A stretch of DNA of 64,000 nucleotides. It comes from Haplodiscus bocki. Its lineage: Eukaryota. Below the pieces are notes generated by a model. It did no database searches and was not told the origin of the DNA. It worked only from the letters and a program-made list of their open reading frames with translations. Shown here in pieces: positions 9,791 through 58,999 of the stretch (within the stretch, counting starts at the first letter, position 1; each line of letters opens with the position of its first letter). The stretch lies in assembly GCA_965655095.1 (NCBI GenBank), contig OZ296648.1:147126001-147190000 (forward strand). The letters run 5' to 3'. The position numbers and the translations under genes are program-made.

Positions 9791-9979
9791 TAGCATAAAA
9801 TCTAGCAGACTGACTCGCTCTAACCTACATTGGAACATAGGAACCTCCGTCCTAGGCAACAGATCTTGGAGTTTTTTGGGTGACTTAATACTCGAGTCTG
9901 GTTGGCTGCCGACAACATTTCGCAAAAACCGACAGCAATGTTTTGAGCGAGGCCGAAGTTCGACAGTGTGTTGAAATTT

Positions 9980-15169: not shown

Positions 15170-18010
15170 TTACTGGGTTCAAGAAGTTCCTTTTGTTGGA
15201 AGAAGGCAGCAGTTTACTTCGATAATTCAAGGAGTCTGTGATCGTAAACGTTCAAAATGTGGACTAAAAATTCTATTTTGGAAAGGAACGTTTTTCTTTT
15301 GATGGAAGTCTTTTTGATTGACAATTGGAACGAAAAATCAAAAGATAATTTTTTTTTCAGACAATCTGCCTCTTTATCAGGTGGATTCGATCCAATTGAG
15401 TGTTTTTTCTCCGTCAACGTGTCTCCTCACTAAGAGAAATTGTTCTATTGGATTGATTTTCACAGACACACTGTCATTTCATCGGAGGATCATTTTATTT
15501 GGAGTGATATTGCGAAACTTACCAATCTTGGGGTTCAACATTGCGAGGTATGATATAAACCTAATCAAGAGTTGCCTACTACATATTCTCGTAAACGAAC
15601 GTTATTTGAAGCGAATGTTTTAGAAAAAGCCAAGCAATTTGTCTCGTTCAAAAATGGTAAAGTTCAATTTCTTGACTTTTTCAATTTTTTCGTAGATGTT
15701 ACCAGTCTTGATTCAATCCTGAAAGCCTACAAGTCTTCAAAGTTGACAAGATTTTTTTTCATAGTAGCGGTTGAACCACCCAGATAAACTGAACAGCAAA
15801 GAACTACCTTCATACACAGCCATTCACAACAAACTACGGAATTGCAGCTTTCTTGAAAGGAGTAACTAGACGTCGAAAAGCTGATCAGTATTCGTTTGAC
15901 GAGAGAAGTTGCCCGGTCAAGCTGAGATTTTCTGAAATATCACCTACCGGAGCAGACAACTATTCCTATTTGCACGAGGTGTGGGAGCAGCAAAAAATGC
16001 AGACGTTCAAAGACTTTTTGCGCTGGTAAACTAACAACATCTTGTACCAAAATTACAGGCTATGCAAAACTGATCGACTTTTTTAGCAACAAACGCATTG
16101 ATATGCTCAAGCGTGGATGTACTTTACTTAACCTGGCCAACTTTTGTCTGCACATTTTCACCAGTGCAAATACTTATCCCTTCACAGGAAGCGATGAAGA
16201 TTTGTTTTCAAAGTTTTGAGAACAATTGATTGAATAACCATCATCAGTGTTTACAAATAAAGCTGTTATTGACTACACTCACATCCACAAGTCCACAAGT
16301 GTTTGCAAATCGACTATTGGAACAGATGTTGGCCAACTTTACTCTTACTCAATGCGTCAACCTACGCCTACAGGACTCTGCACATAGTATGGGAGCTATG
16401 CAGATTTACAAAAATTCAAGCCCTGTCAGGACAAATCTGGAAGCTTCGAAGATATGGTCATGTTGCATTTTCAGCGAGTGAGACCGGAATGCAGAATTGA
16501 GAATTTTTACAAAACAGGAATTCAGAAAAAGTTTGATTGCTTCAATACATATGGTTTTTGTGGATTTTGCAACACAGTGTTTGAAACAATGTGTCTTTTC
16601 TAATTTTACTGTTGTTGTCAATAGACACAACCTGCTCCAAATGAAAAAGTAATTTTCAACGTGGAACAAAAAAGAGGGAACTGGATTAAATGTTGAAACA
16701 AAATATCGAAGAAAAAGGTTACACTATGTCTAAATGTGGGAAGGTGAACGGTGGAAACTCCAAAAAAACTGATGCATCACTGAAGGAACACTTGAGAGTA
16801 TCAATCCCATACAGGCTTCATTGCGTCAGGACCACTAATTGGACAAAACAAAATCAGTTGAAATGTTTGGTGACGTACAGTGTGATATGAAACTTCCAGA
16901 ACATCAAAAAGAAAACTTTGCAAACTTCCCAATATTTTTCAAAATTACAAACGTTTGTAGACAAATTTTTGGATCATTAAGGCAAGAGTACGCTGAGAAG
17001 GAAGAATTAGCGTCCCAACTACGACGGACCTTAAATTCTAGCTTTAAACTAACCAATTGTACAATCATTACACCACTGTTTTTTTGGGGCTGGGATTTAT
17101 ACGCACAAAAGATTATCGCTTCGTTGAATACAATCCGATCAACTGTTTTAACATGTTTGTGCAATCCACTGTTAATGATCGTCGTCAAGAGGACGAGAAT
17201 CCAAACTGTAGTCTTGTTGCAAAAACTATGATGTTGCTTGCTAGCATCTCGCACGGTTATGAAATTGTGGATTGCAGTCGTGATTCAATTACACGATGTA
17301 TGAGTTATGAAAAAACACATGAAGCCATCAACAAAAAAGTTCAAGAGTTTCTGACAAATCATCGACAAACTCCGACAGATACATTTGTCCAAAACTGTAA
17401 TATAACAAAAGGAACCAATCAATGTAATCTTTTTTATCCTGCAGTACGCTAAATTGAGACTGTTAGAGCCCTCTCACAGCTTTCTCTTACAAGCTTTTAT
17501 GATACTGACTAGTATGAGGAGAACAAATGGAAACTGATTCACTCTTTTTTGCACTAGCCCAAGAAAACTTGAAAAATTGTAAAAAAGTGAAATAAAGCAA
17601 GAGTGGAATTTGTTGGGTAGTCAAAACAGTAGCCATTCGTTCGCTGCAGACGCTTGCAGCAAGTTTTTCACCCAATCATACAGTGCTAAGCACAAAAAAC
17701 ATGATAAAAGTGAACCTGGATTGTTCGAGAAGGAATTTTGAAGCACTGAACTGTTGTGTTTGTGTAGCAAGATTTACAGCTGTTACAACTCTCTCAGCAA
17801 CAAGTTTAAATTCAACAGCAACGGAATGAACAAGCAAACAATTGAAGAGTGTTGAAAAGTGTTGGAGGAAACAGTTTGTGCAATTTTTAATCGGTAGATT
17901 TCGGACAAGGAACCATTGTGTAGCAACCAACTAGCGTACAAAGAAAGGGCTTTTTTATTTTCATCCTAAACGGATAAATGAGTCCTATGGAATCAATACT
18001 CCTCCGTTGG
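15170..18010 (+). pseudogene. Polinton/Maverick (adintovirus-type) protein-primed DNA polymerase B, frameshifted (right-arm copy)
   Basis: LPILGFNIARYDINLIKS at ~15520; motif A region at ~16310-16370; Vsr-like insert (GFCGFCNTVFE...IEEKGYT) at ~16550-16730; motif B at ~17220-17260; METDSLFFALA motif C at ~17527; C-terminal KGLFYFHPKR..PL tail ending at ~18009. Confidence 0.9.
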
Positions 18011-18649
18011 AGGATTAAATTCCCTGAATACCTGGTGTTTGTCCAAATAGATAGTCCCTTATTTACTGTTTTCCAACTACGACTCCCTGAAAAAACTATC
18101 CGCACGCATATTAAATTATCCGCTGGGTTTCCCAAAAGAAGTTTTCTCTCGACATTCCCAAGTTTTAATCCTGCTGACAAGGCCTCGACTTTCCCCCCAC
18201 CTCTGCTCACACATTACTACTAGACAGAACGTGGCCCCATTCAACCCAAACGTAATATATTTGATAAACGAAACCCATATCTTAATACACTGGACTGAAC
18301 TCCAGCCTGGAGTGAACTTTTTTTGCATTGAACCCTAGTCTCACAGTGCCCATAAGCCTTAGCCTCACAGTACCAAAAACGCGAACCTTACTTTGGAGTG
18401 AACCTTATCTTGGGGTGATCGCCATCAATTGAGTTATCTTGAAACATTCTGGTATCTTCGGGTGGTGCCGAAAGTCTCACAGAGCTGAAAACTCTATACC
18501 TTGGGGTTTCCTAATACATTTGATTAAACCCTCTTTTGGGGTGAACCTTATTTTGTAGAGGCATCTTCCTACCTGGAGGTATCTTCCGGTTGTGCTGAAA
18601 TTTTCACTGTGCTTAGGGTCTCACAGTGCCATAAACTTCTATCCTAATG

Positions 18650-20199: not shown

Positions 20200-21334
20200 C
20201 CGTTAAGCGGCACAGTTCACTACCATGAAAACTCTGATATATAACGTTACAAGATAAATATAGCATGACAATTATGTCACTTAGCTATAATGAGTTGACA
20301 GCTTTTAGAGAACATTTTTTGCCAGACGCTTTGATTTGAGCTGTTTCTATCTCCAGGAGATGTGTTGGCCGACCAGCTGAAACCCCTGACTCCGTCGCAA
20401 TTGCCTTACAGCGGGATAATTTGGATAATACGATGGCGCGTCATGTTATCGTCGAAACTTTGAGAAGGTATTGGGTTCTAATGCAAAAATTGTGAATAGG
20501 GCTCATTTCGAGATTGGCGTCGTAAAAATTCTTGAGAGACGCGAAATGTTGCTGGCCAAAAAAAGATCATGCTCGAGGCTCAAGAAGTTAGAGGAAGAAA
20601 CTGCCCGGGTCGAAATAATGGCCGAAGTTTTTCGGGTATAAGGGCGTTAACGGCGGTCAAAATTAGCCACAGAAGCCGTTATTAACCGGAAAAATAGCGG
20701 CATTAACGGCGTTGAACCGGAAAAATAGTGGCGTTAACGGCGTTGAACCGGAACGCTAACGGCGTTAACGGCGTTCCTTGTCGGTATAAAGGCGTTAACG
20801 GCGTTTTGCCTGTCGGTATGAAGGCGTTAACGGCGTTTTGCTAAAAAGTTAACGGCGTTAGCGGCGTTTACGCCACTATACCGGAAAAATAGCGGCGTTT
20901 TCCCAAAAAAATTACCCGGGTGGCAACATGCCAGTTGAAGACAGTGATTTAGATTCGCCTTACAAATTCTTAAGAAGCGGGCCGAAACGAGATTTCAGGA
21001 GTCCACATATCACAATTGCAATCTTCTAAAGCGAGCGCCAAACATAATGGAACGGTTCTTTAGTTCTGCCGGCTTAGTTCTGTCAGTTCTGTGCCAAAAA
21101 TTGATGCCTGAACAGGTGACACAGCAACAGTTTCTTAAGGTCAAACGAAATTTTGGAACGTAGAACTCGTATCACAAGTTTTGAATTATTAAATATGTAG
21201 CTTGAAATTTATGAATTTATGACATTTCCAGTTTTTCCCGAGGTACCAATAATTGCAATAGTTTGATAAAGTTTATCAAAATCAATTATTTATTGGCAAT
21301 TTTTTTTCTTGCAATCGCTATTTCGCAAGCTCTG
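20200..21334 (+). mobile_element. hAT DNA transposon remnant (C-terminal half of the transposase plus 3' end)
   Basis: DSVAIALQRDNL and GSNAKIVNRAHFEIGVVKIL (~20390-20535); hAT dimerisation-like NIMERFFSSAGLVLS..KLMPEQV..FLKV (~21040-21150). Probable 3' terminus ...ttcgcaagctctg, i.e. a CAG-starting TIR on the opposite strand. Confidence 0.75.
20604..20920. mobile_element. GC-rich MITE-like insertion interrupting the hAT transposase
   Basis: Termini cccgggt...acccggg. The interior consists of ggcgttaac and accggaaaaatagcggc repeats. hAT coding similarity lies on both sides. Confidence 0.6.
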
Positions 21335-29150: not shown

Positions 29151-30617
29151 CACCGTTCATGTTTTTTAAGTTGTTGTGTTTTTGATCTGACGGCTGGAAG
29201 TATTGTCCCTTTCTATACTGCGTTTTCTTTCAATTTCAACGAATTGGACATTTGAAATGAAGTTTATAGTTTATAAGCACTTAGCAATGTGAGTGGCTTC
29301 ATTTTGCGTCGAGGTAGTTCTTAGATTAAGTGTGCTTTCCTTGGTCGTTCGATAAATCGGCATCGCTCTCAGATGGCCTCCGCTACTCTTGATATCGCGT
29401 TTCATAATAGTTTTCAAACAATTTCTCTCTGCCACCACTTGTTCAATGTGGCATGGCTAAAGTAGTCAGCGCATTGATTTTTTGACCCGGCAACCTTTCC
29501 GACGAAATATCAAATTACTTGGTAAAGAAGAACCAACTGCTCAGACTAGTGCTACGAGGTGTGTTCTATTTGAAAACTTTTCAAAAATTGTTCTAGTACT
29601 TCCTGAACAGGGTGCAAAAGCATTTATTTTCCGTACAAAAAACTCAAAAAATTCCGCGATCGGACACTACTGGTAGCAATTCTAATTCAACCATGGATTA
29701 ATTGCTTTTGTTTTGACTTTTAAAAAAGTCTACTCTGCAAATAGCAACATTTTTAATCTCCCTAGAAAAGTTTCTTACCTGTATTGAAGCCCCCACGTCC
29801 ATTCACAATGCAACACATGCCACGCTATATAATCATTTCCTTGTAATATACTTCAAATGGTATTTCTGTTAGTAGTTCTTTCCTTTTCGTGAAGTTTTGT
29901 TTAAGTTTGTCGGGCCAGTTGCATCGTGTTTCATTCTTAATATGCTTTTCAAAAATTACGTCTTTCCTGAGAAGTCATTCTAGGTTTTGGTAACTATGAA
30001 ACTGTGAGGAAAGATTTCGTTTGTTTTGTTCTATCTGGAAATGCTAATTCATTACTTGTGTCTGTTTTCTTTTTGTTCAATACTACACAGCTTTACGATA
30101 TATCCTATTTTTTGAATACTTCCGGATATGAGGTCGATTTGATTGTTCTTTTTCTTGGTCTGTATCACACTTTCTGTATTTTTTTTCTGCTTTTCTCAAT
30201 TTTTTTTCTCTGCATGTTGGGTTTCCTTTCTTCTTCAAACTTCCAAAATGTGATCAAGGCAAACTGGCAATTATTAATTTGATATTCATAAGAAAATTGA
30301 ACTGAGCGCCGTCTTCTGAGAAGCACTCTTCGATGCCCGCGATGTACCCCGAGCGCACCCAATGGGTTTCTTGCGCCCCAAGGGCGTCGTGAGTATCCTC
30401 AGTTGGAGCTGCTCCTTATTTACGGCACCTAGGCGACCTGTCGTTTCTCTTGCGTTCGTACTGCCGGCTTCGTTTGGTGGGATCTGTTGTCCTGAAGCCC
30501 CAACCTTTTTTCTTGTCTTGAGTCTTGTGTGCCCATAGCTGGGCTTGTAGTGTGAGATGTCTTCCTTTCTTAGACAGCGCTTTGTTTTCAGCTCCTGGAG
30601 TGGACGAATTTCGGACA

Positions 30618-31277
30618 ATGCATGTCTTTGGCGCCAGTTCTCTAGCTGCTTCGGTGAACACTCTTAATGGTGGTGTCTTCAAACGGCGACGTTTTCTAAC
30701 TGCTATTCCTGGACTCCACTTAGTACAACGCTCTGCCCGTTTCCCCTGCAAAACAGTCCAATACCAACTTCATAAACTTCTCCGTCTACACAAACACACT
30801 TTAAATTTCCAAATCGTCCTCTGGCATGACACCATTAACAATTCCATTACACCGCACTCCTCAAACTTCTACAACCCTTTAAGTCCTCAAGAACTCGTTG
30901 AAGCAATCAGTGCTCTTCTTTGTCCCGTCTCTGCCATAGTCTACTGTCACCGGAATAATTCTCTTCCAATTTTCGACCAGCTCAGTTGGTCCTTTTTGAC
31001 CGTTCATGCAGTCAAGCACCTTTTATCACACCGCAAACCAAAGAACATTGCCTTACTTCGCAAATACAGCGAACTTCATTTGGATATCTCCTTGGAAATC
31101 AGGATGTTCTTTTTAATATCCAAACATATTAGTGACCTCCACCTCCTAACAAAGAAAAAATCGAGACTCAACAACAAGCGACGACGTTCACGTTTCCGAA
31201 AACAACAACTCCAACAGCCGACGCAACATCCACAGTTTCAACATCACCATCCCCATCAGCATCTCCATACCCGTTAA
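30618..31277 (+). CDS. Intact 219-aa ORF with SGNH/GDSL-hydrolase-like motif spacing and a basic C-terminal tail; probably retroelement-derived
   Basis: Longest ORF in the window (frame open from 30525). MHVFGASSL (block I-like), AIPGL (block II-like), IVLWHDTINNS (block III-like), YSELHL (block V-like), then KKKSRLNNKRRRSRFRK and a Q/H/P tail. Confidence 0.6.
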   Translation: MHVFGASSLAASVNTLNGGVFKRRRFLTAIPGLHLVQRSARFPCKTVQYQLHKLLRLHKHTLNFQIVLWHDTINNSITPHSSNFYNPLSPQELVEAISALLCPVSAIVYCHRNNSLPIFDQLSWSFLTVHAVKHLLSHRKPKNIALLRKYSELHLDISLEIRMFFLISKHISDLHLLTKKKSRLNNKRRRSRFRKQQLQQPTQHPQFQHHHPHQHLHTR

Positions 31278-34687: not shown

Positions 34688-34928
34688 GACTGGAGTTATT
34701 CGTCAGTCAAATATTGTTGCAAAATTCGGTGACTCAATACTGACGTGGTTTGAAAAACGTTTTTGAGGGTAAACAATCATATCGAATGTCATATGCAATT
34801 CGATATGGTTGTTTACCGTCTAAAACGTTTTTCAAACCACGTCAGTATTGAGTCACCGAATTTTGCAACAAGTTTCCTTGTTAAAGTGTTTGCTTACAAC
34901 AGAGATTCTGTTATGATAACTCCAGTTA
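34688..34928. mobile_element. Hairpin MITE-like element with a ~158-bp near-perfect internal palindrome (34714-34871)
   Basis: ttgttgcaaaattcggtgactcaatactgacgtggtttgaaaaacgtttt... and its reverse complement flank a ~10-nt loop; outer short IR ctggagttat/ataactccag. Confidence 0.75.
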
Positions 34929-35290
34929 CACTTTGAAGTGTCTCACTTCAGAAGGTTTGAGGCCGAGCGAAGCCTCACGTCGATAGAGGATTGTAGCACG
35001 TCACTTGGTTACGGACACGAAATATTAAAAGTCATCTTTACTTGCAGTCGTAATATGGTTGTTCCAAATTGCCACATTTTCAAGCTGTTTTCGTAATCAA
35101 ATTTCTGACCCAAAAAATGGTTCGACAAAAAAAGGTGCCTAGAAACATTACCTTTAACTCTTTCGCCCTGACTGCAAGTAAAGACGAATTTTAATATTTC
35201 ACGTCCGTAACCAAGTGACGTTCAACGATCCTCTATCACCGTGAGGCTTAGACCGGCCTCAAACCTTCTGAAGTAAGACACTTCAAAGAG
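34929..35290. mobile_element. MITE with ~120-bp TIRs and a TA target-site duplication
   Basis: ta|cactttgaagtgtctcacttcagaaggtttgaggcc...ggcctcaaaccttctgaagtaagacacttcaaagag|ta; arms 34929-35049 and 35170-35290. Confidence 0.8.
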
Positions 35291-36535
35291 TAATGCACTA
35301 CTGCAAAGCCTAATACTCCAATGACGTAAGATCGAATGGAAGTTAGAGCCACCCTATTATCAACACCGAACGAAAATATGTCTTTTTGTTTGGAACGATT
35401 GGCGCGACCAAATGTCTAACTTCGACGGCCACTGCCAAAGCGTTGAGAAAAAGCCAACAAAATGGCCACTACCATGGACGTTGGACTGCAATCTTGACTT
35501 TGGAGAAAACTCCAAACAATGTTTTTAGTGCTCTAATGAATGACTAACGTGATGAACAGCTCCTTTCAAAACCTGTAAGCCTTACCAATCTAGGACAAAG
35601 TTATGACAACACTTTCGATTTTTTGTTCTTTCAGGGTCAAGATGGGTTGAGGGCATGCTCTTTTGAGAGATGACTCCGGCAAATAATCTCGCAAAGGACT
35701 GCCTTTTCCACAAGAGAACTGCTTTTTTCAAAACAACTATAATTCGAAAGGTCAATCAAGACACTAAAATTTAACTTCCCTCTCCAAATGTTCCCGGTTT
35801 GCGTTTTCAATGTGAACTATCCAGACAAGTTATCTACTGCATGAAACTTTCCTTCCACAAAACTTTAGGTTCTTCAGTTTGTGCTTTGTCGCATGAGTTT
35901 TTTTGCTCTGCGGTTTGATTGCTGCTCAAGATCCTTCGACCGGTGTCGACTGGCTCTGCCATTTCAAAAAGTATCTACTTTCTAAAAAATTATACATGAA
36001 GGCAACAACCGTTATCCCTGAAAGTGTATAAACCTGTTCAAATTCATAATCTTTATGCACATTGTGATAATTACAGTCTAGATCATCTCAGAGTAGATAC
36101 TGTTCACCACGGTTGTTGTTGCCACGATGTTACCACCAGCATAGAGCATCCGAGGCGGTCGAGATAATGATAGCTCCTAACTGTTTTTAACTTGTCACTT
36201 CTGGGTAATCGCCCTCTAAAAAACGGCAGTTTGTGGCAGCGTTTTATTGATAAAGTGAGGCTTCAAAAATGTGCCTGTTTTTTCGGTGGCGTTGATCACT
36301 TTTGGAACCGTTTTCGTTAGCCTGTCGTCATGTGTACTAGAGTTCGCTTAGGGTGATAGAAAATACTAGCACTCCGTTTGGCTACCGGCGAAGAGAGGAA
36401 CTCTTGAAATAAGAGCATCTTTTGCAGTTGGAACGTATTGATTAGCGGATGGGGTTTGTAGATTGTTTTATTTTCCAGCTACCTTTTGGCAAATGCCAAA
36501 ATAATCCCTCCAGTTACTTTGCTACAACTGGGGTA

Positions 36536-38181
36536 CCCCCCCGTCGAGAACACAATGATAATATTGATGGTTCATTATTGTTGTCATCCTTAACATGAAT
36601 GATGTATCAATTCTACATCGAAAATCGTAAAGATTGGTGACACTTTGATATTACCTCAATGTTTCATCTTTGTTTTCAATGATGTTCCACATTTAAAACA
36701 ACGATGTTCCGACGATTAAACATCAATGTGATTCATCAATGGAACATGATTGAATCATCAATGAAACAACGATAAATCGTGGACAAGGAAATAACTAAAT
36801 TTAGGACTTCTATGACTGAGGTTAAAATACTGAAACTACGATAGTTTCAAATATCATCTTTTCCGATCCAATTGACAAAAATTTTTGTTCAAAAAGTTAA
36901 TATGCAAGACAAAAAGCGATAGTTTCGGATAACTCGCCGAATGAGATATTTTCGCTTAGTCTAAGGCCTAAAAGTGAAACTTTTTTTGTAGAATGCCTAA
37001 ATTCTGTTTGAAAATTGTTTCAGATGTCTTCTAAAATTCATTTACTTGAATTTTAGCCAAAGGCAGAATTAGATGGCAAAAATGCGTAAATTCTTTGAAA
37101 GGAGAAACGTTAACCATTTTTCGACTATTTTGAGCGTAAGCAAGATCTCATTAAATTAAAGAATAGATTTGAAAATAGTGATGTATCTTGGTAACTTCTT
37201 GTTTCTTTTCCGAAAGTCTTTCTTTTTGGATGCAGTTGTTGCCTTTGGTTAATTTCAACTTTGAAGCTAAGAACTTTCCAGAAATTGCGAGTATAATGAC
37301 GGTGAAAACGGTCACCGGCATTTTCCCGTCTCACCAGATTTTTGCTGGTGTTTCACTGGTGAAAGAGCAAAAAAATGTAAGAATTTTTATTGATAGCAGC
37401 AATTACCACGCTATTTTTGTGGTAAAACGCTGTTACTATGGCGTTTTTTGGTATGAAAACCGTTATTTTTCCGTTGAGTAACCGCTTCTGTAGAGAAATG
37501 CTTTCATAATGGAAGAATTTCAGCCAATATCTCAAATCAGTTGGAAGCCCCTGGTTTTGAAAAAATAGGGCATTCGGAAAAATTAAAATAGAAAAAAGTT
37601 GACTCTTTCTCAGGTGGTAACACGATTACTTTTCAATCTCCACCTATTTTTTCCCTAATTCCACTCACTTTAAAACTCTTAAAGGTAGGCCGAATGCAAA
37701 ACTTCTGCTCAATTTGCGAAATAAAACTCAATGATACATGAATCATTAATGACATGACACATCGACGTTTTGGAATAACGGACTTTGTAATCATTAATGA
37801 TCTTCAATGTTTCCATCGAAATCATCAATGTTTCATTGAAGACTCATCTACGAATCATCAATGAAACATCGATGTTTCACAAAATAGCACATTAAAAACA
37901 TTAATGATCTTTAATGTTTGCATCAAAATCTTCACTGTCTCGTAAATGTTTCGTCAAAGAGTCATCAATGAATCATCAATGAAGCAGCAATGAAGCATCA
38001 ATGTTTCACAGATTATCACATTAATTAAAACCATTAATGATCATTAATGTTTGCATCGAAATCATCAATGTTTCATCAATGTTGCATCGATGTCGCATCG
38101 TTGTCTCTTAAATGAACAGGCCTGTTTTTTGATGACGACATCAATGAATCATCAAAGTTACCAATGTGTTCTCGACTGGGG
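36536..38181. mobile_element. Non-autonomous TIR DNA transposon (~1.65 kb) with CCC termini, TA TSD and catcaatg sub-terminal arrays (CACTA/EnSpm-like architecture)
   Basis: ta|ccccccc gtcgagaacacaatgataa...ttaccaatgtgttctcgactgggg|ta; ~55-bp TIRs; dense catcaatg/catcgatg repeats at 36600-36780 and 37730-38150; no coding capacity. Confidence 0.8.
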
Positions 38182-47865: not shown

Positions 47866-49965
47866 TTGAACGAAGTGCGTTGTCGGGGGAAACATGCTCT
47901 CAGCGGAAAGAAAAGAACAAATTGAACGCAAAGAATGGCGTGGTTTAAGGAAGAAGCAGGTTGAAGCGCAAAAAAGAAAACGCAAAAGTTTTTGGATAAG
48001 CAATCTTTGAAGAAGAAACAGTTTAGTAGACAAACATTCAGCAAAACACTGCAGAAAATGAGAGTTAGAAAAACAATTGGGAAGAAACAATTTTTCAGCG
48101 CTGATGTTGTTTTAGAATACAATAAGAAAAGCAAAAGAAGGGACAAGCCAGGTAAATGTGCAATATGCAAAGAGATTAGTTTAAAGTTGCCTGGGGGTGA
48201 CATCTAAAGAAATAAAAAAAACGCCTCTCATCATTTTATATAGTAACCCTGCTTTGGGTGCTACGATTTCCATAAATACTTTTCTAGGAATTAAGGGGAA
48301 AACCTCGTAAATTGCCACAAATAAAGTGGGCCGTTAAGGTGGGTATTATTTGGACAATTCTTTTTGTACATGAAGTAAACTAAATTACAACAAACAATAA
48401 TAGTTCTGAAATACAAATATATTTTTTGTTGAGAGAAAAGAGAAGGAGAGGGGAGCTTTCAGTTTTTTCAAAAAGATCAGAGAAAGTATTTTTTTGTTAT
48501 GCGGTTTGCCTCTCCTGCTGTCTTTTGCAAAACAGATGGTCATTGTGTCGCGTTCTAGCTAACGTTTAAAGAGAAATATTATATTTCTTAAATACGTGCA
48601 GTAAGCCATTAAACAGGAAATGACTAATGTTTAACAAGAGAATTGCGTGTGTTACTGACAAACATGGGAGCTGAACTGGTGAAGAATAATGCGGTATGAA
48701 GGAAGGCTGAAGGAATGGAATTGCACAAGAAAAAGAAGAAAACAAAAATTCTAAAAGCGTTGGAACGCAGTTCAACACTATTGGCTCAACGACTGGTCAC
48801 GAAGTATAACTCCATTTTGGCTCAACGATGCTTTTGGCTCAACGACCTGTCACGAAGTATAACTCGGTTTTGCAGCTAGTACGGGAAATGCGGCCACTAC
48901 TTACTTACTCGCTCACCGGACGGCAGCCTTACTTCTTTCCCTTTTACCTTACCTTACTCTCTTCTTTCCTTTTACATTACTCCCTTTCCCTTTTACCTTA
49001 CCTTCTCTTCCTTCTTGCTGGTTAAAATTAATCTGATTTCTCTTCCCTCTTTCCACGGGTGAAAATATTCTAAGACCATTCCAAATTGTGTCTTAGCCAA
49101 ATTCCAATCGCATCTCATCGAAAATATTCTAACATAATTCCATATCGTGTCTTAGCCAAATTCCTATCGCATCTCGTCGAAAATATTCCAAGACAGTTCT
49201 AAATTGTATCTTAGCCGAATTTCTTCTCCTTTGCTTATTTACTCTATACTCTTTTCATCGAAGTATAAACGGTGTGCACTAACGCTAGCTTCGGTATTAG
49301 CGTGCGCCGATTCCGTGGATGAACTTCGGTTCTGAAACAAGAGTGGATCTTAATTTGCACAACTCTTGCCATCGGTGTATAAACGGTGTCCACAAACACC
49401 AAAGACTTTTTCGCCTGCAGATTTTGTCTTATCCGCAAATCATCAATTTTGTGGAACTATTCAAAGTTTATCGCGTGCAAAATTGTCCTAGCCGCAAATC
49501 AACAATATCCTGGAAATATCCAAAGACTTTTTCGCCTGCAGAATTGTCTTAGCCGCAAATCAACAAAATCCTGGAAATATTCAAAGACTTTTTCGCTTGC
49601 AGAGTTGTGTTAGCCGCAAATCAACAAAATCCTGGAAATATTCAAAGACTTTCTCGCCTGCAGAATTGTCTTAGCCACAAATCAGCAATATCCTGGAAAT
49701 ATCCAAAGAGTGTTTCGCCTGCAGATTTGTCTTAGCCGCAAATCAGCAATATCGTGGAAATATTCAAAGAGTTTTCCGCCTGCAGAATTGTCCTAGCCGC
49801 AAATCAACAATATCGTGGAAATATTCAAAAAGTTTTTCGCCTGCAGAATTGTCTTAGCCGCTAATCAACAAAATCCTGGAAATAATCAAAGACTTTTTCG
49901 CCTGCAGAATTGTCTTAGCCGCAAATCATCAATACCTTGGAAAAATTCGAAGACTTTTTCGCCTG
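47866..49965 (+). repeat. First copy of a near-identical ~2.1-kb tandem duplication (second copy starts 49988); includes flank plus a truncated LTR starting at 48546
   Basis: Identical ORF translations offset by 2122-2123 bp (47992/50114, 48566/50689, 48828/50951, 49319/51442). Confidence 0.95.
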
Positions 49966-51519
49966 AGAGAAAAGAGAAGGAAAAGTCTTGAACGAAGTGC
50001 GTTGTCGGGGGAAACATGCTCTCAGCGGAAAGAAAAGAACAAATTGAACGCAAAGAATGGCGTGGTTTAAGGAAGAAGCAGGTTGAAGCGCAGAAAAGAA
50101 AACGCAAAAGTTTTTGGATAAGCAATCTTTGAAGAAGAAACAGTTTAGTAGACAAACATTCAGCAAAACACTGCAGAAAATGAGAGTTAGAAAAACAATT
50201 GGGAAGAAACAATTTTTCAGCGCTGATGTTGTTTTAGAATACAATAAGAAAAGCAAAAGAAGGGACAAGCCAGGTAAATGTGCAATATGCAAAGAGATTA
50301 GTTTAAAGTTGCCTGGGGGTGACATCTAAAGAAATAAAAAAAAACGCCTCTCATCATTTTATATAGTAACCCTGCTTTGGGTGCTACGATTTCCATAAAT
50401 ACTTTTCTAGGAATTAAGGGGAAAACCTCGTAAATTGCCACAAATAAAGTGGGCCGTTAAGGTGGGTATTATTAGGACAATTCTTTTTGTACATGAAGTA
50501 AACTAAATTACAACAAACAATAATAGTTCTGAAATACAAATATATTTTTTGTTGAGAGAAAAGAGAAGGAGAGGGGAGCTTTCAGTTTTTTCAAAAAGAT
50601 CAGAGAAAGTATTTTTTTGTTATGCGGTTTGCCTCTCCTGCTGTCTTTTGCAAAACAGATGGTCATTGTGTCGCGTTCTAGCTAACGTTTAAAGAGATAT
50701 ATTATATTTCTTAAATACGTGCAGTAAGCCATTAAACAGGAAATGACTAATGTTTAACAAGAGAATTGCGTGTGTTACTGACAAACATGGGAGCTGAACT
50801 GGTGAAGAATAATGCGGTATGAAGGAAGGCTGAAGGAATGGAATTGCACAAGAAAAAGAAGAAAACAAAAATTCTAAAAGCGTTGGAACGCAGTTCAACA
50901 CTATTGGCTCAACGACTGGTCACGAAGTATAACTCCATTTTGGCTCAACGATGCTTTTGGCTCAACGACCTGTCACGAAGTATAACTCGGTTTTGCAGCT
51001 AGTACGGGAAATGCGGCCACTACTTACTTACTCGCTCACCGGACGGCAGCCTTACTTCTTTCCCTTTTACCTTACCTTACTCTCTTCTTTCCTTTTACAT
51101 TACTCCCTTTCCCTTTTACCTTACCTTCTCTTCCTTCTTGCTGGTTAAAATTAATCTGATTTCTCTTCCCTCTTTCCACGGGTGAAAATATTCTAAGACC
51201 ATTCCAAATTGTGTCTTAGCCAAATTCCAATCGCATCTCATCGAAAATATTCTAACATAATTCCATATCGTGTCTTAGCCAAATTCCTATCGCATCTCGT
51301 CGAAAATATTCCAAGACAGTTCTAAATTGTATCTTAGCCGAATTTCTTCTCCTTTGCTTATTTACTCTATACTCTTTTCATCGAAGTATAAACGGTGTGC
51401 ACTAACGCTAGCTTCGGTATTAGCGTGCGCCGATTCCGTGGATGAACTTCGGTTCTGAAACAAGAGTGGATCTTAATTTGCACAACTCTTGCCATCGGTG
51501 TATAAACGGTGTCCACAAA

Positions 51520-52880
51520 CACCAAAGACTTTTTCGCCTGCAGATTTTGTCTTATCCGCAAATCATCAATTTTGTGGAACTATTCAAAGTTTATCGCGTG
51601 CAAAATTGTCCTAGCCGCAAATCAACAATATCCTGGAAATATCCAAAGACTTTTTCGCCTGCAGAATTGTCTTAGCCGCAAATCAACAAAATCCTGGAAA
51701 TATTCAAAGACTTTTTCGCTTGCAGAGTTGTGTTAGCCGCAAATCAACAAAATCCTGGAAATATTCAAAGACTTTCTCGCCTGCAGAATTGTCTTAGCCA
51801 CAAATCAGCAATATCCTGGAAATATCCAAAGAGTGTTTCGCCTGCAGATTTGTCTTAGCCGCAAATCATCAATATCGTGGAAATATTCAAAGAGTTTTCC
51901 GCCTGCAGAATTGTCCTAGCCGCAAATCAACAATATCGTGGAAATATTCAAAAAGTTTTTCGCCTGCAGAATTGTCTTAGCCGCAAATCAACAAAATCCT
52001 GGAAATATTCAAAGACTTTCTCCCCTGCAGAATTGTCTTAGCCACAAATCAGCAATATCCTGGAAATATCCAAAGAGTGTTTCGCCTGCAGATTTGTCTT
52101 AGCCGCAAATCATCAATATCGTGGAAATATTCAAAGAGTTTTCCGCCTGCAGAATTGTCCTAGCCGCAAATCAACAATATCGTGGAAATATTCAAAAAGT
52201 TTTTCGCCTGCAGAATTGTCTTAGCCGCTAATCAACAAAATCCTGGAAATAATCAAAGACTTTTTCGGCTGCAGAATTGTCTTAGCCGCAAATCATCATT
52301 ATCCCGAAAATAATCAGAGTTTTTCGCGTGCAGAATTGTCTTAGCCGCAAATCATCAATATCGTGGAAATATCCAAAGAGTGTTTCGCCTGCAGATTTGT
52401 CTTAGCCGCAAATCATCAATATCGTGGAAAAAGTCAAAGAGTTTTCCGCCTGCTGAATTGTCCTAACCGCAAATCAACAATATCGTGGAAAAAATCAAAG
52501 AGTTTTTCGCCTGCAGAATTGTCTTGGCCGCAAATAAACAGTCTCCTGGAAATATTCAAAGACTTTTTCGGCTGCAGAATTTTCTTAGCCGCAAATCATC
52601 ATTATCCCAAAAAAAATCAGAGTTTTTCGCGTGCAGAATTGTCTTAGACGCAAATGAACAATATCCTGGAAATATTCAAAGACTTTTTTGCCTGCAGAAA
52701 TGTTTTAGCCGCAAATCATGAAAATCCTGGAAATATTCAAAGACTTTTTCGCCTGCAGATTTGTCTTAGCCGCAAATAATCATTATTCTGGAAATATTCA
52801 AAGACTTTTTCGATTGCAGAATTGTCTTAGCTGCACGTCATCAATATCCGGAAAAATTTCAAAGAAGTTTTTCGTCTGCA
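51520..52880. repeat. 61-bp tandem satellite inside the 5' LTR (~22 units)
   Basis: Unit gcctgcagaattgtcttagccgcaaatcatcaatatcctggaaatattcaaagactttttc. About 9 units at 49400-49965 and about 3-4 units at 57470-57680. Confidence 0.95.
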
Positions 52881-53050
52881 AGCAGCACTCCAGCAACCAG
52901 AAGGAATCATCCAGTAACCAGCAGCAACCAGCAGCAACCAGCAGTATCCCGGCCGCAACCAGCAATCATCCAGCAAACACTAGCAACTAGCGGCGACCAG
53001 CAACAAGCAGTAGCAACCATCAGCAATCAGCAGTAATCAACAGCAGCCAA
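52880..53050. repeat. CAG/CAA-rich ~10-bp microsatellite-like tract in the LTR (also 57680-57860)
   Basis: cagcaaccag / cagcaatcag units. Confidence 0.85.
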
Positions 53051-53452
53051 CACTAACACGACCAATGCTAGCTTCTAACGTAAAAGACCATATGAGTAAT
53101 TCCCCATTCCACACGCGCAGTCATATTTCCTCCACGGTTCAACAAATTGAATTGTCATTGTTTATAATTTAATTTTCTTTTGTATTCTTTTTCATAGCTC
53201 ACAAGTCCTTGCTTGAATTCACGCAATCCCTTTGTGCGCACGTTGAGCAAGGCACCGTAATGAGACTTATAAATAACAACCGTCGCTATAGCATAGTAGT
53301 GCTGACTGAGTCAAACGCCAGCACAACTGAGTAAATATTAGATTTTTAATACCCCTACCACGTACGACAAATTAGTGCGACCAGTGTGGCATATCTAAAG
53401 TGAGCAAAAAGTTCTTGGTGCGGTTTGCTTTGGAGCTATCTTTATATGGGCT

Positions 53453-54445
53453 ATGTTTCTCTTAATATTTTTTACTACCGCTGCCAATCACTTTGCCTAT
53501 CCTTACGCCTCTTCAGACAAGTCCTCTTGCACTGAACCCGATAGAGATGCTGAATCTTGTTCACAACTGACGGAAGCTGCCACCTTGTGGAATCAGATAA
53601 AAATGAACTTCCTTACTAGATTCTCAGATGGACGAAATAAATTTCGCCATCGATTGAAAGTTAAACGTTGTTGGCCTAATGATATGAACGGTATCACAAA
53701 TGCCCAGCAATATGCAGAACGAGCTACACAAAGAAGACAACAAAAGCAAAGATACATGGACTACAGTCCGCGAGGACTTAAAACAAAATATTTACAGATA
53801 AAAGCCCAAGAACAATTAATGGAGTGCCCGAACGCTACCCGGATTGACTTTTCGACTCAAAATTTGCAAAAGAATGTCATGTTACAAGTATGCTCGAATT
53901 TTCTACACGATGTGGAAAAAATCAAAATTGAGCTGGCTACAATGCGCCAAGAAGTGAGAAACCCTCGAACAGAACTTCAGGAACACTGAGTTAATTGCAT
54001 GGAAGGAATTTTTAGAGCATGGGCTCCCACCCAAAAGGGGAACCAAAAAACTGTCCGGTTCTGTAACTACTGTCAATAAAACGGACACACACCAAAATGG
54101 TGTCGCAAAAAGATGCGAGACGAAGAAAGACGGAGAGTGCAACATGATATGTCCCTCTACAAAAATATTGCTCCTATACGGGAATACGGCACTAGTGACA
54201 CTTATTGTAGATCCCAGCACGATCAAAGCGCGGACCGATGCCTTGATTCGGACGAAATGAATATTCCCACGAATAACTTTCTATCCACCGAAGACGAAAC
54301 CTGTCAAGATGAAAATAACGATGTGATTCCTCTGGAACCGAAATTCATTTCGAAGACCAATGGCATGAGCTTCAGAATGGCACAATTCAATTCAGCTGAA
54401 GAATCTGACAATGAATTGTCCGACCCACTTCCGTTGGGCTACTGA
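53453..54445 (+). pseudogene. gag: gag (interrupted) with CCHC zinc knuckle
   Basis: ORF 53453-53989 (WNQIKMNFLTRFSDGRNKFRHRL..RGLKTKYLQ), then FCNYCQ*NGHTPKWC at ~54060-54105, then ORF 54113-54445. Confidence 0.8.
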
Positions 54446-55123
54446 AGACCTCAAGAATCCTTCTTTTAATTTTTATCCTATAGCTTTTGTATACTTTTAT
54501 ATTCCGTGATGTCAAATGTTTGTTTTTACTTTATTGGTTAAATCTAGTTCCCACCTGATTCGTCGGATCCTAACCGCCCTGATTTGATCTAGATAATTTG
54601 ATCTTTATCACAAGGAATATCATCGCAGTTATTGATTGAGATTCTTCGACGTGAATCGCGAGATGTTCAAACATCTTGCCCTGGCTTCATCGGCGCCAAT
54701 AGGCAATACCTTCGCCGTAAGTGGGCACCTATCACATCTTCATTGGAACACATGTTCACCACAAAAGTTTCGACACTTGATGGAGCCCAAAGACTCGGTT
54801 GAAAATCTACCCACTGTAGTTGTTATCCCAATACCTGCCCGTACAGCAGAATTCGACAACGTCCTTGTGACCCTCACAATTGCCGGTCGGAACTTGGCCA
54901 CTCCGACTTTGGACTCGACGGAAAATCAAAGATTGGTAAATCTCCTTGCGTATATGAAAGCTAACCTTGGGACCAACACTGGGGTGTCACTGATCAACCT
55001 ATTGCACGAAACTTGCAATCGTTACGTCCTGGAAATCAGACAGTAGACGAGCAAGGTAGGTGAGTTTTTCAAAACCCCAACGAAATCTTGACAAAATAAC
55101 AAATCTGCTTCAACACTAAACAG

Positions 55124-55267
55124 AACCCGAATAGTTGGAGATAAGTGCCAATTGGGAATTACAAATCATCAAAACCCGAACAGTTGGACATAAGTGCCAA
55201 TTGGGAACTACAAGTTATCAAAACCCGAATGGTTGGACGCGCGAGCCAACTGGGAACTACAATCATC
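55124..55267. repeat. 49-bp tandem repeat x3 between gag and env
   Basis: aacccgaa(t/c)(a/g)gttgga...gccaa(t/c)tgggaa(t/c)tacaa at 55124, 55173 and 55222. Confidence 0.85.
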
Positions 55268-55501
55268 TTATCTATGGTGGAAGTGAGGTAAATTTAATTT
55301 TTGGCACTACCGGTTTTAGCCCGGCACCCTTTACTAAAATCTCCACGTGGTTACTAGAGTAGTGTAGCGGCTCTATAAATATAGTGCTGTCGCTTCGTGT
55401 TCGTGCCAACGAAGTAGCCGGTAAAATATAATACGGCTGTTCTTTCTTTTTTGGTAGCTGTGACGAAAAATTCCACTCTACCCTTCCCATTTGCTAAGGC
55501 A

Positions 55502-55870
55502 ATGGATGTTATAAACCAGGTCTTGTTTCTAGTTATTTTAGCCAGTTTCACGAATGGCAACCTTGAAAACGCAGATTTGCAAAAAATACCCTCCCAACTC
55601 AAAGTGACACTTTACGAAATTACGACTGTGGTGAAATGACAGAGAATAGCCTCTACGCTTTAAACCAAGTTTCCAAAGGCAATATTGCTCCTGAGAACTT
55701 AGAAGTCAGTACAACAATTTCGAAGAGAAATCAACACAACAGTCTGCAGAGTCAAATACCAGAGTGAACAATGGCACGGTGGTTTTGGAGACGATTCAAG
55801 TCTGGATTCCCATCATGCAGGGATAACAACAGACTTAACCATAACAGCATCTCAATGCAGAACCTTAACG
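55502..55870 (+). pseudogene. env: N-terminal fragment of an envelope glycoprotein, chuvirus-G/herpes-gB-like (class III) pattern
   Basis: Signal peptide MDVINQVLFLVILASFTNG. After frameshifts: YDCGEMTENSLYALNQVSKGNIAPENLEVS and FRREINTTVCRVKYQSEQWHGGFGDDSSLDSHHAGITTDLTITASQCRTL. Located just upstream of the 3' LTR. Confidence 0.65.
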
Positions 55871-56059
55871 ACTTTTAACTTCTTCCCACACAGCAAGATG
55901 TTCAGCAAAACTGAAAACTTTCTTTTAATCAATACTTTATATTTGGAGATAAAATTCACCGACCTACCCAAACCGGGAGGCGCCACAGCTTCCACACCCC
56001 GACCGTCCCTTTTATGGAACCCCCCAGTCGTTTTTCTATCCTTTTGACCCCGTAGAGTT

Positions 56060-58175
56060 CTTGCGTTATAGCTAACGCTTAAACAGATTTATTATATTTC
56101 TTAAATACGTGCAGTAAGCTAATAAATAAGGAAATTACTAATGTTTAACAAGAGAAATGCTTGTGTTACTGACTAAAATGGGAGCTGAGCTGGTGAAGAA
56201 TAATGCGGTATGAAGGAAGGCTGAAGGAATGGAATTGCACAAGAAAAGGAAGAAAGCAAAAATTCTAAAAGCGCTGGAACGCGGTTCAACACTATTGGCT
56301 CAACGACTGGTCACGAAGTATAGTTCCATTATGGCTCAACGACGCTATTGGCTCAACGACTTGTCACGAAGTATAACTCCATTTTGCAGCTAGTACAGGA
56401 AATGCAGCCATTACTTACTTACTCGCTTACTGGACAGCAGCCTCACTTCTTTCCCTTTTACCTTATCTTACCCTCTTCTTTCCTTTTACATTACTCCCTT
56501 TCCCTTTTACCTTACCTTCTCTTCCTTCTTGCTGGTTAAAATTAATATGATTTCTCTTCCGTCTTTCCTCGGATGAAAATAATCTAAGAAAATTTCAAAT
56601 TGTGTCGTAGCCAAGTTCCAATCGCATCTCATCGAAAATTTTCTAACATAATTCCAAATTGTGTCTTAGCCTAGTTCCAATCGCATCTCATCGAAAATAT
56701 TCTAAGACAGTTCTAAATTGTATCTTAGCCGAATTCATTGTCCTTTGTTTATTTACTCTATACTCTTGCCATCGAAGTATAAACGGTGTCCACCAACGCT
56801 AGCTTCGGTATTAGCGTGTGTTGATTCCGTGGATGAACTTGGTTCTGAAACAAGAGTGGATGTTAATTTGCACAACTCTTGCCATCGGAGTATTAACAGT
56901 GTCCACTAACGCTAGCTTCGGTATTAGCGTGTGCAGATTCCGCTGACGAGCTCCGGTTCTGAAGCATGAGTTGATCTTAAACTGCACGGCCCCCACGAGG
57001 TTGCTAGGAAAGAGAATTGACGTTACTCATAGATCAAATCTCACCTCGTCTGCGTCCGTGGGATTTAGAAATCAATCTAAATTCCATGATACGGATCAAA
57101 TAAGCAGAAACCGTCCCTTTTCCAAACTTCGAACTTTTCGTACCGACTAGATAATCTTCATTAACCTTACTATTTGCGGCGCTCTCCTATTAGTCGATTA
57201 CTCGATTACGTCATAATAGGGTATAAATATACGCTACTCTCTTACTTTTTTCATTCGCTTTCCTACCGTCAACTGGCCTAAATCCCCGAGGCGAAACTCT
57301 CTTTCACTTTCCTCTCATAATATTTCTAGAGCTCAATTCTTGCTCCTAAAATATTCTAAAACAATTTCAAAACTTGTTTTTGCCAAATTTCTTCATCGCC
57401 TCTTCGAAATATTCTAAGACAATTTTAAAACTTGTCTCTGCCAAATTTCTTCATCGCCTTTCCGAAAATTTTCAAGGACTTTTTCGCCTGCAGAATTGTC
57501 TTATTTGCCAGTAAATAATATCTTGGAAATTTTCAAAGACTTTTTCGCCTGCAGAATTGTCTTAGCCGCAAATCATCAATATTCTGGAAATATTCAAACA
57601 CTTTTTCGCCGGCAGAATTGTCTTAGCCGCAAATCATCGAAATCCCGAAAATGTTCAAAGAACTTTTTGGCCTGCAAGCAGCACTCCAGCAACCAGCAGC
57701 AATCATCCAATAACCAGCAGCAACCAGCAGCAACCAGCAGCAACAAGCAGTATCCCAGCCACAACCAGCAATCATCCAGAAACCAGCAGCAACTAGCAGC
57801 GACCAGCAACAAGCAGTAGCAACCATCAGCAATCAGCAGTAATCAACAGCAGCCAACACCAACACGACCAATGCTAGCTTCTAACGTAAAAGACCATATG
57901 AGTAATTCCCCATTCCATACGCGCAGTCATACTTCCTCCACGGTTCAACAAATTGAATTGTCACTGTTTATAATTTAATTTTCTTTTGTATTCTTCTTTT
58001 TAGCTCACAAGTCCTTGCTTGAATTCACGCAATCCCTTTGTTCACACGTTAAGCAAGGCACCGTAATGAGACTTATAAATAACAACCATCGCTAAAGCAT
58101 AGTAGTGCTGACTGAGTCAAGCGCCAGCACAACTGAGTAAATAATAGATTTTTAATACCCCTACCACGTGCAACA
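56060..58175 (+). repeat. 3' LTR (~2.1 kb)
   Basis: Homologous to 50669-53369, e.g. ORF pair 50951-51148/56348-56539 and a shared 3' end taatacccctaccacgt. Has an extra block (~56900-57470) and a shorter satellite. Confidence 0.9.
57218..57232 (+). promoter_or_regulatory. TATA-box-like motif in the 3' LTR-specific block
   Basis: agggtataaatatac, followed ~25 nt later by the Inr-like tcattc. Confidence 0.4.
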
Positions 58176-58999
58176 ATTGAGACGGAAAAGAAATGGTTGA
58201 TCAGAAAAGAAACTGCTGGGTGGCTGTTTCTCGAAAAGATCTACATCACTATTTGTGGCAGGAAACGAGTGATGACTGATAAGAACCATCAGTCATTTTG
58301 CACAAAAAAACAGGCATGAGGGACGAGTTGTTGACAGAATTACTTTGAATATGATGAGCAAAGAACTGACTAATGCTGCTGGCCTAGAGAGCCTGGACAA
58401 AGTGGAGCGAAAAAAATGAGTGAAAATTTTAGAAAGATGGCGTTCTAGAAGGTCCATTATTAAAATAAATTTAAAGTAACGTTTTGTTTTGTTGGGTTTC
58501 ACAGTGATCTGCGGGGTCACATCGGCAACTAAGAATTTTTGACTCTGATGCCCTTGCCATATACCGGTTTCCAGTCAATTTCTTTAAAGACAGCAGATCA
58601 AAATTAGCACCATTACTGTTGAACTAATTCGACGGACAGTCCAAAATATAGTGTTAGAAAACTTTGGTGAGAACCAAATTGAATTAAAGCACAGGTTAGT
58701 AGTCCAAATACAACCTAAGCAAAGAAAAAAGAAACTTCTGTTTTTGGAGCAAAGACAAAGACCAGAACGCACTGGATGGGTTGGACTGGACAAAAACTGG
58801 GAGTCATAAAAGATATGGGTGACAGCATCATTTGAGCCCAAGTTTATTCCAAAAGACCGGTAAACGAATTGAAAAGAAAATCGAAGATACGATTCATATG
58901 AGAGATAGCAATTGAACTCTAAGAAGTGGAAATGTCGTGGCAAGCGAAAGGCAGAATCAAACAATCGTACAATAGAAAACACACTCCAATCCGTTTACA

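Follow-up and report, generated by a model that had tools for sequence, protein, structure and literature searches.

An LTR element without pol lies at positions 50669-58175 of the window (the whole 64,000-nucleotide stretch of Haplodiscus bocki DNA analysed here), and its 2689-bp interior, as delimited by sequence analysis, raises the question of whether an autonomous element lost its genes after insertion or whether a family multiplied without them. We consider it probable that an enveloped Ty3/Gypsy retrotransposon gave rise to a non-autonomous subfamily and that the locus is a dead copy from this subfamily, inserted long ago; the reading of its anatomy deserves high confidence. Gypsy elements with a gB-like env are an already described class; the interest that remains is a TRAF-C cargo gene, the most unusual feature of the element, which was overlooked in the preliminary description of this DNA.

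Structure of the insertion

The outer ends of the element read TGT...ACA and are bordered on both sides by ATTG (50665-50668 on the left, by direct flank comparison, and 58176-58179 on the right; all features described here lie on the forward strand). The chance of a matching 4-mer at the flanks is about 0.005, and a 5-bp duplication fails to match; judged by its termini and the 4-bp target-site duplication (TSD), the insertion is of the integrase type. The termini had been described as intact, which holds for the outer ends and the TSD, but not for the inner end of the 3' LTR, which is degenerate and lacks TG. The 5' LTR (50669-53369; 2701 bp; TG...CA), delimited by repeats and LTR alignment, contains 59-bp repeats (51184-51344), an array of 22.3 copies of a 61-bp unit (51523-52880) and a CAG/CAA-rich repeat. 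The 3' LTR (56059-58175; 2117 bp) has 3.4 copies of the 61-bp unit and harbours a segment of about 360 bp without counterpart in the 5' LTR (56988-57347), which includes a TATAAA at 57222. As stated earlier, the LTRs together exceed the interior (4818 compared to 2689 bp), and they are long partly because of the 61-bp tandem array. LTR-LTR identity is 91.8% over 851 sites and 94.7% over 489 sites (K2P 0.087 and 0.055).

The primer-binding site is placed by position at 53370-53390, where the window copy is degenerate and has no canonical TGG start, and the 3' LTR is preceded by a pyrimidine-rich stretch, not a purine tract. No tRNA was found, and there was no Rfam match between 48000 and 59000. 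The reported absence of protease, RT and integrase was borne out by the six interior frames, which gave no Pfam match to any of the three at E values up to 1; 69 other frames of the window yielded three weak Pfam matches, all below the cut-off. A recent tandem duplication of 2.1 kb (47866-49987) upstream of the element repeats the initial 1.4 kb of the 5' LTR together with some 680 bp of flanking DNA; it postdates the insertion, and its junction holds 18 extra nucleotides that were copied from the neighbouring flank. With stops in gag, frameshifts in env and LTRs that are 5-9% diverged, the window copy is dead and can supply neither Gag nor Env.

The gag remnant and its relatives

The gag remnant (53480-54445), defined by comparison with relatives, belongs to a short-gag subfamily. 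Two in-frame deletions have removed 45 and 22 amino acids in or adjoining the PF03732 capsid region. The CCHC knuckle noted earlier is present as a single CX2CX4HX4C motif (54062-54103), but of the two in-frame stops at 53987 and 54077 one lies within it, and the surrounding gag is the internally deleted form. Eight of 24 gag matches are short, and both capsid segments are missing in all eight, that is, the same internal deletions recur in every short-gag relative; the second segment is present in 16 of the 24 and the first in 15, one full gag starting beyond it. The short gags are 63-84% identical among themselves, and the family therefore diversified after the deletions. Their share of conservative changes (0.40) equals that of the full gags, and in a quick gag tree their branch has a support of 79, or of 100 with P0121 included. 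The N-terminal blocks of P0121 match the best full gags at 31/32 and 33/33 positions and the short gags at no more than 18/32 and 26/33, while its tail is of the short-gag type; P0121 is thus a mosaic of helper and derivative gag.

PF03732 scored above the cut-off in three of five full gags and in neither of two short gags, and it was the only family found in these seven proteins, BEL/Pao-type Pfam families being absent at E values up to 0.01. The element has TG...CA LTRs with a 4-bp TSD, and its relatives have a Retrotrans_gag capsid and a CCHC nucleocapsid, as in Metaviridae, whose TSDs measure 4-6 bp. The earlier assignment to Gypsy rather than BEL/Pao is upheld by the PF03732 gag of the full-length relatives.

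ORF-X and the 49-bp repeats

Downstream of gag, the list of open frames contains a stop-free frame of 136 amino acids (54636-55046), previously described as unknown. The frame is indeed open, but comparison with relatives aligns just its last 84 residues (54792-55043) with a family protein, namely the C-terminus of a longer, family-specific ORF-X of at least 210 amino acids. The first 52 residues are common to a subset of relatives only, and are either another frame of a decayed ORF-X or the product of a deletion join. When frames were tested for a frameshifted ORF-X, the relative P0263 scored above 300 of 300 shuffles (11.2 bits), whereas a score of 0.0 was obtained for the window frame, a value also reached by 7 of 300 shuffles. 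Three 49-bp tandem repeats, found by repeat detection, separate ORF-X from env (55124-55267), and the ORF-X of the relative P0161 continues into the same repeats. A search with an ORF-X relative against 1.84 billion representatives returned 19 matches (17 short and family-like, two long and repetitive), none of them a polyprotein, and thus gave no sign that ORF-X is the terminal part of pol; the ESM Atlas gave nothing usable for ORF-X.

The chuvirus/gB-like env

Alignment to relatives places an N-terminal env remnant, reaching to about residue 141 of P0013, a relative of at least 623 amino acids, at 55384-55867. It is broken into four pieces over two frames, with frameshifts near 55430, 55618 and 55710, and has dropped two cysteine positions that are conserved in relatives. 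The signal peptide and the YDC...C-R...W-H-x-G...C pattern reported before can be recovered as a hydrophobic N-terminal stretch and as YDC and C-R...W-H-x-G...C pieces, but from 55862 the same frame encodes TRAF instead of env. The pieces are 65-88% identical to relatives that bear PF24664 (Monjiviricetes_fusion, E 5e-27), in agreement with the proposed chuvirus/gB-like glycoprotein. P0013 scores 94.6 bits on this family (cut-off 27), P0021 and P0023 pass the cut-off in the N-terminal region retained by the window, and eight of 13 aligned env relatives match PF24664 and no other family.

Alignment to P0013, whose cluster has 764 members (a count that does not tell intact from fragmentary copies), was obtained for 30 of 110 matches (22 env-only and eight env::TRAF). 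Most env matches are fragments, and their share of conservative changes is low (0.30). An AlphaFold2 model from 13 sequences reached a pLDDT of 30.4, and a fold search with this low-confidence model gave noise; an env profile had no match in the PDB, nor did env in the ESM Atlas. The longest env relative (623 amino acids) lacks a C-terminal membrane anchor and a furin-like site. The env of the parent is a candidate class III fusogen, which may serve cell-to-cell spread.

A TRAF-C gene at the 3' end

An internal deletion has fused the window env in frame to the end of a TRAF-C (MATH) ORF (env141::TRAF386), of which the last 48 residues remain (55862-56005; 81% identical to residues 386-433 of P0051). 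In relatives, this ORF comprises 433-436 amino acids with a coiled coil and a MATH domain, has no RING and abuts the 3' LTR; in P0027, its frame continues into sequence matching the start of the window's 3' LTR, and TRAF therefore lies inside the element. TRAF-only proteins make up 80 of the 110 matches, and 52 of these 80 are near full length, in a protein set that holds open frames only and thus favours intact-looking copies. The assignment is supported by PF21355 (E 8e-19 in a TRAF relative) and by the PDB, in which all 28 matches are TRAFs (best E 2.6e-14).

TRAF2-6 carry an N-terminal RING and zinc fingers, and TRAF1 is without RING. No Pfam match to either was found N-terminally in the TRAF ORF, which has a mean of 2.4 cysteines per protein over 75 matches. 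Helices are predicted at residues 120-145 and 210-259, the AlphaFold2 model of the full ORF being otherwise low (37.5). A trimer model of residues 216-420 of P0051 scored 0.75 (best of three controls 0.00; pLDDT at least 83; contact agreement at least 82%), on a scale whose mark was reached by 21/30 microbial and 17/29 eukaryotic solved homo-pairs and by 0/23 and 0/30 single chains, respectively; the model indicates likeness only, because TRAF trimers have already been solved. With its coiled coil and trimeric MATH head, and without RING and zinc fingers, the protein may resemble a decoy of host TRAF, which would damp TNFR/TLR-type antiviral or death signalling in particle-making cells. A dominant-negative decoy function of this kind, aimed at the TRAF adaptors of the host, is possible, although we lean slightly against it; more generally, such a TRAF version may enable the element to interfere with cell death or with the defences of the host.

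Origin of the subfamily and alternative explanations

A second deletion family consists of eight proteins with an env121::TRAF289 fusion (70-86% mutual identity); the search for relatives had a lower limit of 201 amino acids, and a fusion of the window type (env141::TRAF386) would fall near or below it. Together with the shared gag deletions and the mosaic P0121, this second family strengthens the earlier proposal of helper-dependent spread, which we regard as likely. The parent family would have had the layout LTR - gag - (pol) - ORF-X - 49-bp repeats - gB/chuvirus-type env - TRAF-C ORF - LTR. An ancestor that retained LTRs and packaging signals may have lost two gag capsid segments along with the whole of pol; it would then have multiplied repeatedly by means of the Gag, RT and integrase supplied by a full-length helper, and such co-packaging would explain the mosaic gag. 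A later deletion between short identical stretches could have taken most of env and TRAF, before or after insertion, whereupon stops and frameshifts would have built up; rearrangements would have affected the LTR arrays, and a duplication the left end. The broadest version of this history can be offered tentatively, being somewhat doubtful: the parent might be a high-copy invertebrate retrovirus of the complex type, with two accessory genes in addition to a class III fusogen. One of these genes would encode a selected, RING-less, trimeric TRAF-C decoy suppressing TNFR/TLR-type signalling. Two or more defective families would depend on this parent, among them one with a constrained, capsid-deleted, knuckle-bearing Gag, possibly an adaptor that draws its own RNA into helper particles.

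Local decay, in which an autonomous element inserted and then lost pol, env and TRAF without any non-autonomous family, would agree with the diverged and structurally rearranged LTRs, and the window env::TRAF junction, which is absent from the eight fusions found, may well be local. However, both gag deletions and the tail are common to all eight short gags, the odd start of the 136-aa frame occurs in 27 of 120 ORF-X matches among those listed (two of the 27 being the window's own sequence), and one putative shared contig bears both a short gag and the odd-start ORF-X type, all of which makes purely local decay very unlikely. Still less credence is due to a BEL/Pao element resembling Anakin, even though chuvirus-like glycoproteins are common in mosquito Pao elements (PMC7642597). 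Against it stand the PF03732 gag with a single CCHC knuckle and the lack of BEL/Pao Pfam families in seven gags. TSDs of BEL/Pao elements measure 5-6 bp, compared to 4 bp here, and the linked RT, part of the env-RT fusion P0021, has Ty3 RT as its best PDB match (E 1.2e-8), in a comparison that included no BEL/Pao RT; this RT could also derive from a nested element.

The position of pol in the parent has to be deduced from relatives known from protein sequences alone: full gags were paired with env, TRAF or ORF-X on a putative shared contig in 0 of 16 cases, there being 12 pairings among 254 proteins. The window copy has the order gag, ORF-X, env, TRAF, and the parent was probably arranged as gag-pol-X-env. 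Alternatively, pol lay between env and TRAF and was removed by the env::TRAF deletion; a GAG-ENV-POL order has been described in nematode, bryozoan and flatworm elements of the gB type (PMC13524379), and env followed by RT in P0021 would be the product of one deletion in such an element. P0021 and P0023, however, lie on a putative shared contig and show three differences in their first 206 residues, as would be expected if an element arranged as gag-pol-env had undergone a tandem duplication spanning RT to env. Furthermore, the last four residues of three of the 16 full gags are C-P-L-N, a motif seen here at the protein level, which would be consistent with a -1 frameshift leading straight from gag into pol, and the GAG-ENV-POL order is accordingly unlikely. 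A somewhat larger, though still minor, chance is given to TRAF being a passenger, a piece of host gene captured once and copied without function. Among 36 aligned copies, the identity gap between MATH (0.863) and linker (0.756) is modest and comes from non-independent pairs, and two deletion lineages spread or persisted although much of their TRAF was gone. In contrast, the length is exactly 433 or 436 amino acids in 28 of 75 matches despite a median identity of 82% to one reference, and conservative changes are enriched in MATH (0.40) and the helices (0.43) over the linker (0.31).

Relation to known elements

The preliminary description placed the element in a poorly described lineage, a view that does not hold: gB-type env proteins in Ty3/gypsy elements, including chuvirus-like glycoproteins beside gypsy pol, have been reported across metazoans (Chary and Hayashi, eLife 2026, PMC13524379). 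The HSV/gB-type errantiviruses of that paper share with the window family a multicopy Ty3/gypsy LTR element and a chuvirus/gB-like env, but they were chosen as intact gag-pol-env copies, whereas the window family has an additional ORF-X and TRAF-C, LTRs of several kb and pol-less derivative families. With gag, pol and a membrane-anchored env all not intact, the window copy is a derivative and not an errantivirus member in the sense of PMC13524379. 'TRAF' does not occur in the main text and seven supplements of PMC13524379, nor 'non-autonomous' in its main text, and a motif search in its alignment supplement (gapped rows, 400 characters per cell) gave no close match.

The giant planarian Gypsy element Burro/GYPSM1 combines env with MATH_TRAF_C, which in one of the species is encoded by an accessory ORF of its own, and its cargo was suggested to meddle with apoptosis and ubiquitination (Arkhipova and Yushenova, PMC6431247). 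Both are enveloped Gypsy elements with a MATH/TRAF-C cargo; Burro, however, has a gypsy/F-type env in a polyprotein of about 5000 amino acids between gag and pol, together with BIR, BCL2 and ankyrin motifs, whereas in the window family a non-coding repeat precedes a gB/chuvirus-type env that begins with a hydrophobic leader of its own, and TRAF is a stand-alone ORF of 433 amino acids at the 3' end. TRAF was likely captured independently in the two. In a literature search outside subscription journals and Repbase, the Burro review was the sole relevant find on TRAF cargo. Anakin of mosquitoes is likewise an LTR element with a chuvirus-like glycoprotein, but on a BEL/Pao backbone (Dezordi et al., PMC7642597), in contrast to the Ty3/Gypsy-like gag and linked RT of the window family. 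A virus-encoded TRAF homologue is also known from the iridovirus ISKNV, whose ORF111L binds TRADD and alters apoptosis (PMC3352826); it is compared here by description, and differs in being pro-apoptotic and from a large DNA virus of fish.

The stand-alone TRAF-C occupies the 3' position that accessory genes have in complex retroviruses. Considered alongside Burro, it suggests repeated acquisition of one immune adaptor by enveloped Gypsy elements. If true, this would point to TRAF-dependent signalling as a restriction of invertebrate retroelements, and it would provide a testable protein. Non-autonomous LTR derivatives include LARD, TRIM and similar elements. The window family resembles these in its retained LTRs and cis signals, lost pol and shared deletions, but differs in its enveloped parent and in a shortened gag frame that retains the zinc knuckle. 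The full, capsid-deleted and mosaic gags and the two env::TRAF deletions form a natural series for the dynamics between defective elements and their helpers.

Structure and age of the insertion

The element at 50669-58175 is dead and belongs to a non-autonomous subfamily derived from an enveloped Gypsy-type element; the parent carries a TRAF-C accessory gene. Its integrase-type insertion, its gene order, the identities of its gag, env and TRAF sequences, the deletions it shares with relatives and its decay are established, and the copy yields no working protein. ATTG is found at both flanks and the outer ends are TGT and ACA; the chance of a 4-mer flank match, computed for the ATTG target-site duplication, is around 0.005. 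The inner end of the 3' LTR is non-canonical, as are the primer-binding and purine-tract positions; thus, the intact termini claimed in the preliminary description hold for the duplication and the outer ends, but not for the inner end of the 3' LTR. As described there, the LTRs (5' LTR, 2701 bp; 3' LTR, 2117 bp) are together longer than the interior (2689 bp), and the reported absence of protease, RT and integrase agrees with a six-frame translation of the interior, in which no pol domain was found by Pfam. Comparing the unique parts of the two LTRs gives identities of 91.8% over 851 sites and 94.7% over 489 sites; the insertion is therefore not recent. A 61-bp array is present in 22.3 copies in the left LTR versus 3.4 in the right LTR. 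In the 5' LTR, the expanded array occupies the position of a TATAAA-containing segment of about 360 bp (56988-57347), which is found in the 3' LTR only, and the 5' LTR may thereby have lost its core promoter.

Immediately upstream (47866-49987), around 2.1 kb of the element's left end are duplicated in tandem in a near-identical form, differing at 3 positions over the first 1.88 kb and at 14 further ones at the array end. The junction contains an 18-nt insert copied from the nearby flank, which resembles the products of templated end-joining; alternatively, the duplication may be an assembly artefact.

A subfamily with a shortened gag

The gag frame (53480-54445) contains the CCHC knuckle described previously, but is interrupted by two in-frame stops. 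Searches yielded 24 gag relatives from 332 candidates (344-2000 aa). Sixteen of the 24 are full gags, which lack the deletions of the window copy; precomputed matches to PF03732 exist for 8/16, and three of five full gags scanned for this family were over the cut-off and two under it. No BEL/Pao-type family was found by Pfam among seven gags scanned. The remaining 8/24 are short gags, which, like the window, have lost 45 and 22 residues in frame at two sites inside or beside the PF03732 region; the second loss covers the putative major homology region. Both deletions are present in 8/8 short gags, in line with a helper-dependent family. The tail of the short gags and the window copy also differs from that of the full gags. 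Identity is 63-84% among short gags and 49-65% between short and full gags over the core, and a quick tree places the short gags on one side of a branch with a support of 79, or 100 with P0121 included. Since the deletions are common to diverged short gags, they are older than many copies. P0121 is a mosaic gag, full-type at its N-terminus and short-type at its C-terminus, and suggests that the two types exchange sequence; candidate origins of P0121 itself are template switching, ectopic recombination or an assembly chimera.

The 136-aa frame

The 136-aa frame has 266 relatives among 279 candidates and neither a Pfam nor an Atlas match. Its alignment to a longer protein form of at least 210 aa, ORF-X, is limited to the last 84 residues. 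Among the 120 matches listed, 83 have the longer-form start and 27 a window-like start (two being the window's own sequence); one is of the window type but read in a different frame, and nine were not classed. The start of the frame may come from reading a decayed ORF-X in a shifted frame, or from a join left by a deletion. Among 1.84 billion representatives searched, 19 matches and no polyprotein were found. Relatives with around 50% identity to ORF-X (P0264, P0267-P0270), for which no named homologue was found, suggest sister families.

Env, TRAF and the parent element

Searches with the frame 55703-56044 retrieved 110 relatives from 223 candidates (201-2000 aa), comprising 22 env-only, 80 TRAF-only and 8 env plus TRAF matches. 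The env pieces of the window are 65-88% identical to the relative P0013 and end near its residue 141. The score of P0013 against Monjiviricetes_fusion is 94.6 bits, with a cut-off of 27; two relatives exceed the cut-off within the N-terminal part kept in the window, and 8/13 aligned env relatives match this family. This family is the basis for calling env class III, together with PMC13524379, in which the chuvirus-like glycoprotein is called structurally similar to gB. No C-terminal anchor is present in the longest env found. The chuvirus/gB-like fragment noted initially is thus supported through its relatives, but from 55862 onwards the frame is TRAF rather than env, with 81% identity to a 433-aa protein over its residues 386-433. 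The two parts overlap by two residues, which is consistent with a deletion between short identical stretches.

The 433-aa protein has TRAF-type MATH matches in Pfam, and 28/28 of its PDB matches are TRAFs. The TRAF frame of P0027 reads on into sequence matching the start of the window's 3' LTR, and env and TRAF matches lie on contigs of equal size twice, a count without a chance baseline; TRAF is therefore the last ORF of the family. The ORF comprises helices and a coiled coil, and neither RING nor zinc fingers were found in it by Pfam. The MATH domain is more conserved than the linker (36 of 80 TRAF matches aligned). A three-copy model reached a score of 0.75 compared to 0.00 for the best control, with a pLDDT of at least 83 and a contact agreement of at least 82%; the calibration of the score, built on two copies, gave 21/30 microbial and 17/29 eukaryotic pairs, and 0/23 and 0/30 single chains. 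Because TRAF trimers have already been solved, the model indicates likeness only.

A second junction, env121::TRAF289, is common to eight other proteins (P0001-P0008), in which env, from its leader to residue 121, is joined in frame to nearly the whole MATH domain. Two of these lie on contigs equal in size to those with the longer ORF-X type, and this family therefore looks independent of the short-gag family.

In P0021, the family env is joined to an RT (RVT_1), for which the Ty3 RT is the best of six PDB matches. P0021 and P0023 are found on equal-size contigs and have 3 differences in their first 206 residues, a pattern that a gag-pol-env element with a tandem duplication inside it would show. 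The arrangement may instead derive from a GAG-ENV-POL parent, an order already on record (PMC13524379), or the RT may stem from a nested insertion.

Comparison and possible mechanism

The observations of the preliminary description are confirmed in part, and its interpretation is supported in part. The short-gag, pol-less form would spread in trans, co-packaged with a full-length helper, and the env of the parent would act as a fusogen. TRAF biology is well established, and by analogy the RING-less TRAF might act as a dominant-negative decoy. The viral TRAF ORF111L offers an analogue for such a role (PMC3352826). Chary and Hayashi described 1512 Ty3/gypsy elements with env, among which gB-type and F-type are equally abundant; the main text and supplements do not mention TRAF (PMC13524379). 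The planarian element Burro likewise carries a MATH_TRAF_C domain, but beside an F-type env (PMC6431247); further context is provided by PMC12440569 and PMC7642597. In the literature outside subscription journals and Repbase, no description of gB-type elements that carry a TRAF ORF was found.

Other features of the window

A palindrome of around 15 kb (3681-18551) has arms of about 6.1 kb with 92% identity and nested inner inverted repeats (around 9300-13500). Each arm contains one open frame of 194-201 aa (7704-8309, plus strand; 14009-14593, minus strand), the former without a Pfam match. As the arms have diverged, a read fold-back artefact is disfavoured. The longest open frame of the window (30522-31277, 251 aa) also has no Pfam match. 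Small clusters of tandem and inverted repeats at 20668-20908, 34714-35293 and 36729-38100 are probably remnants of other mobile elements.
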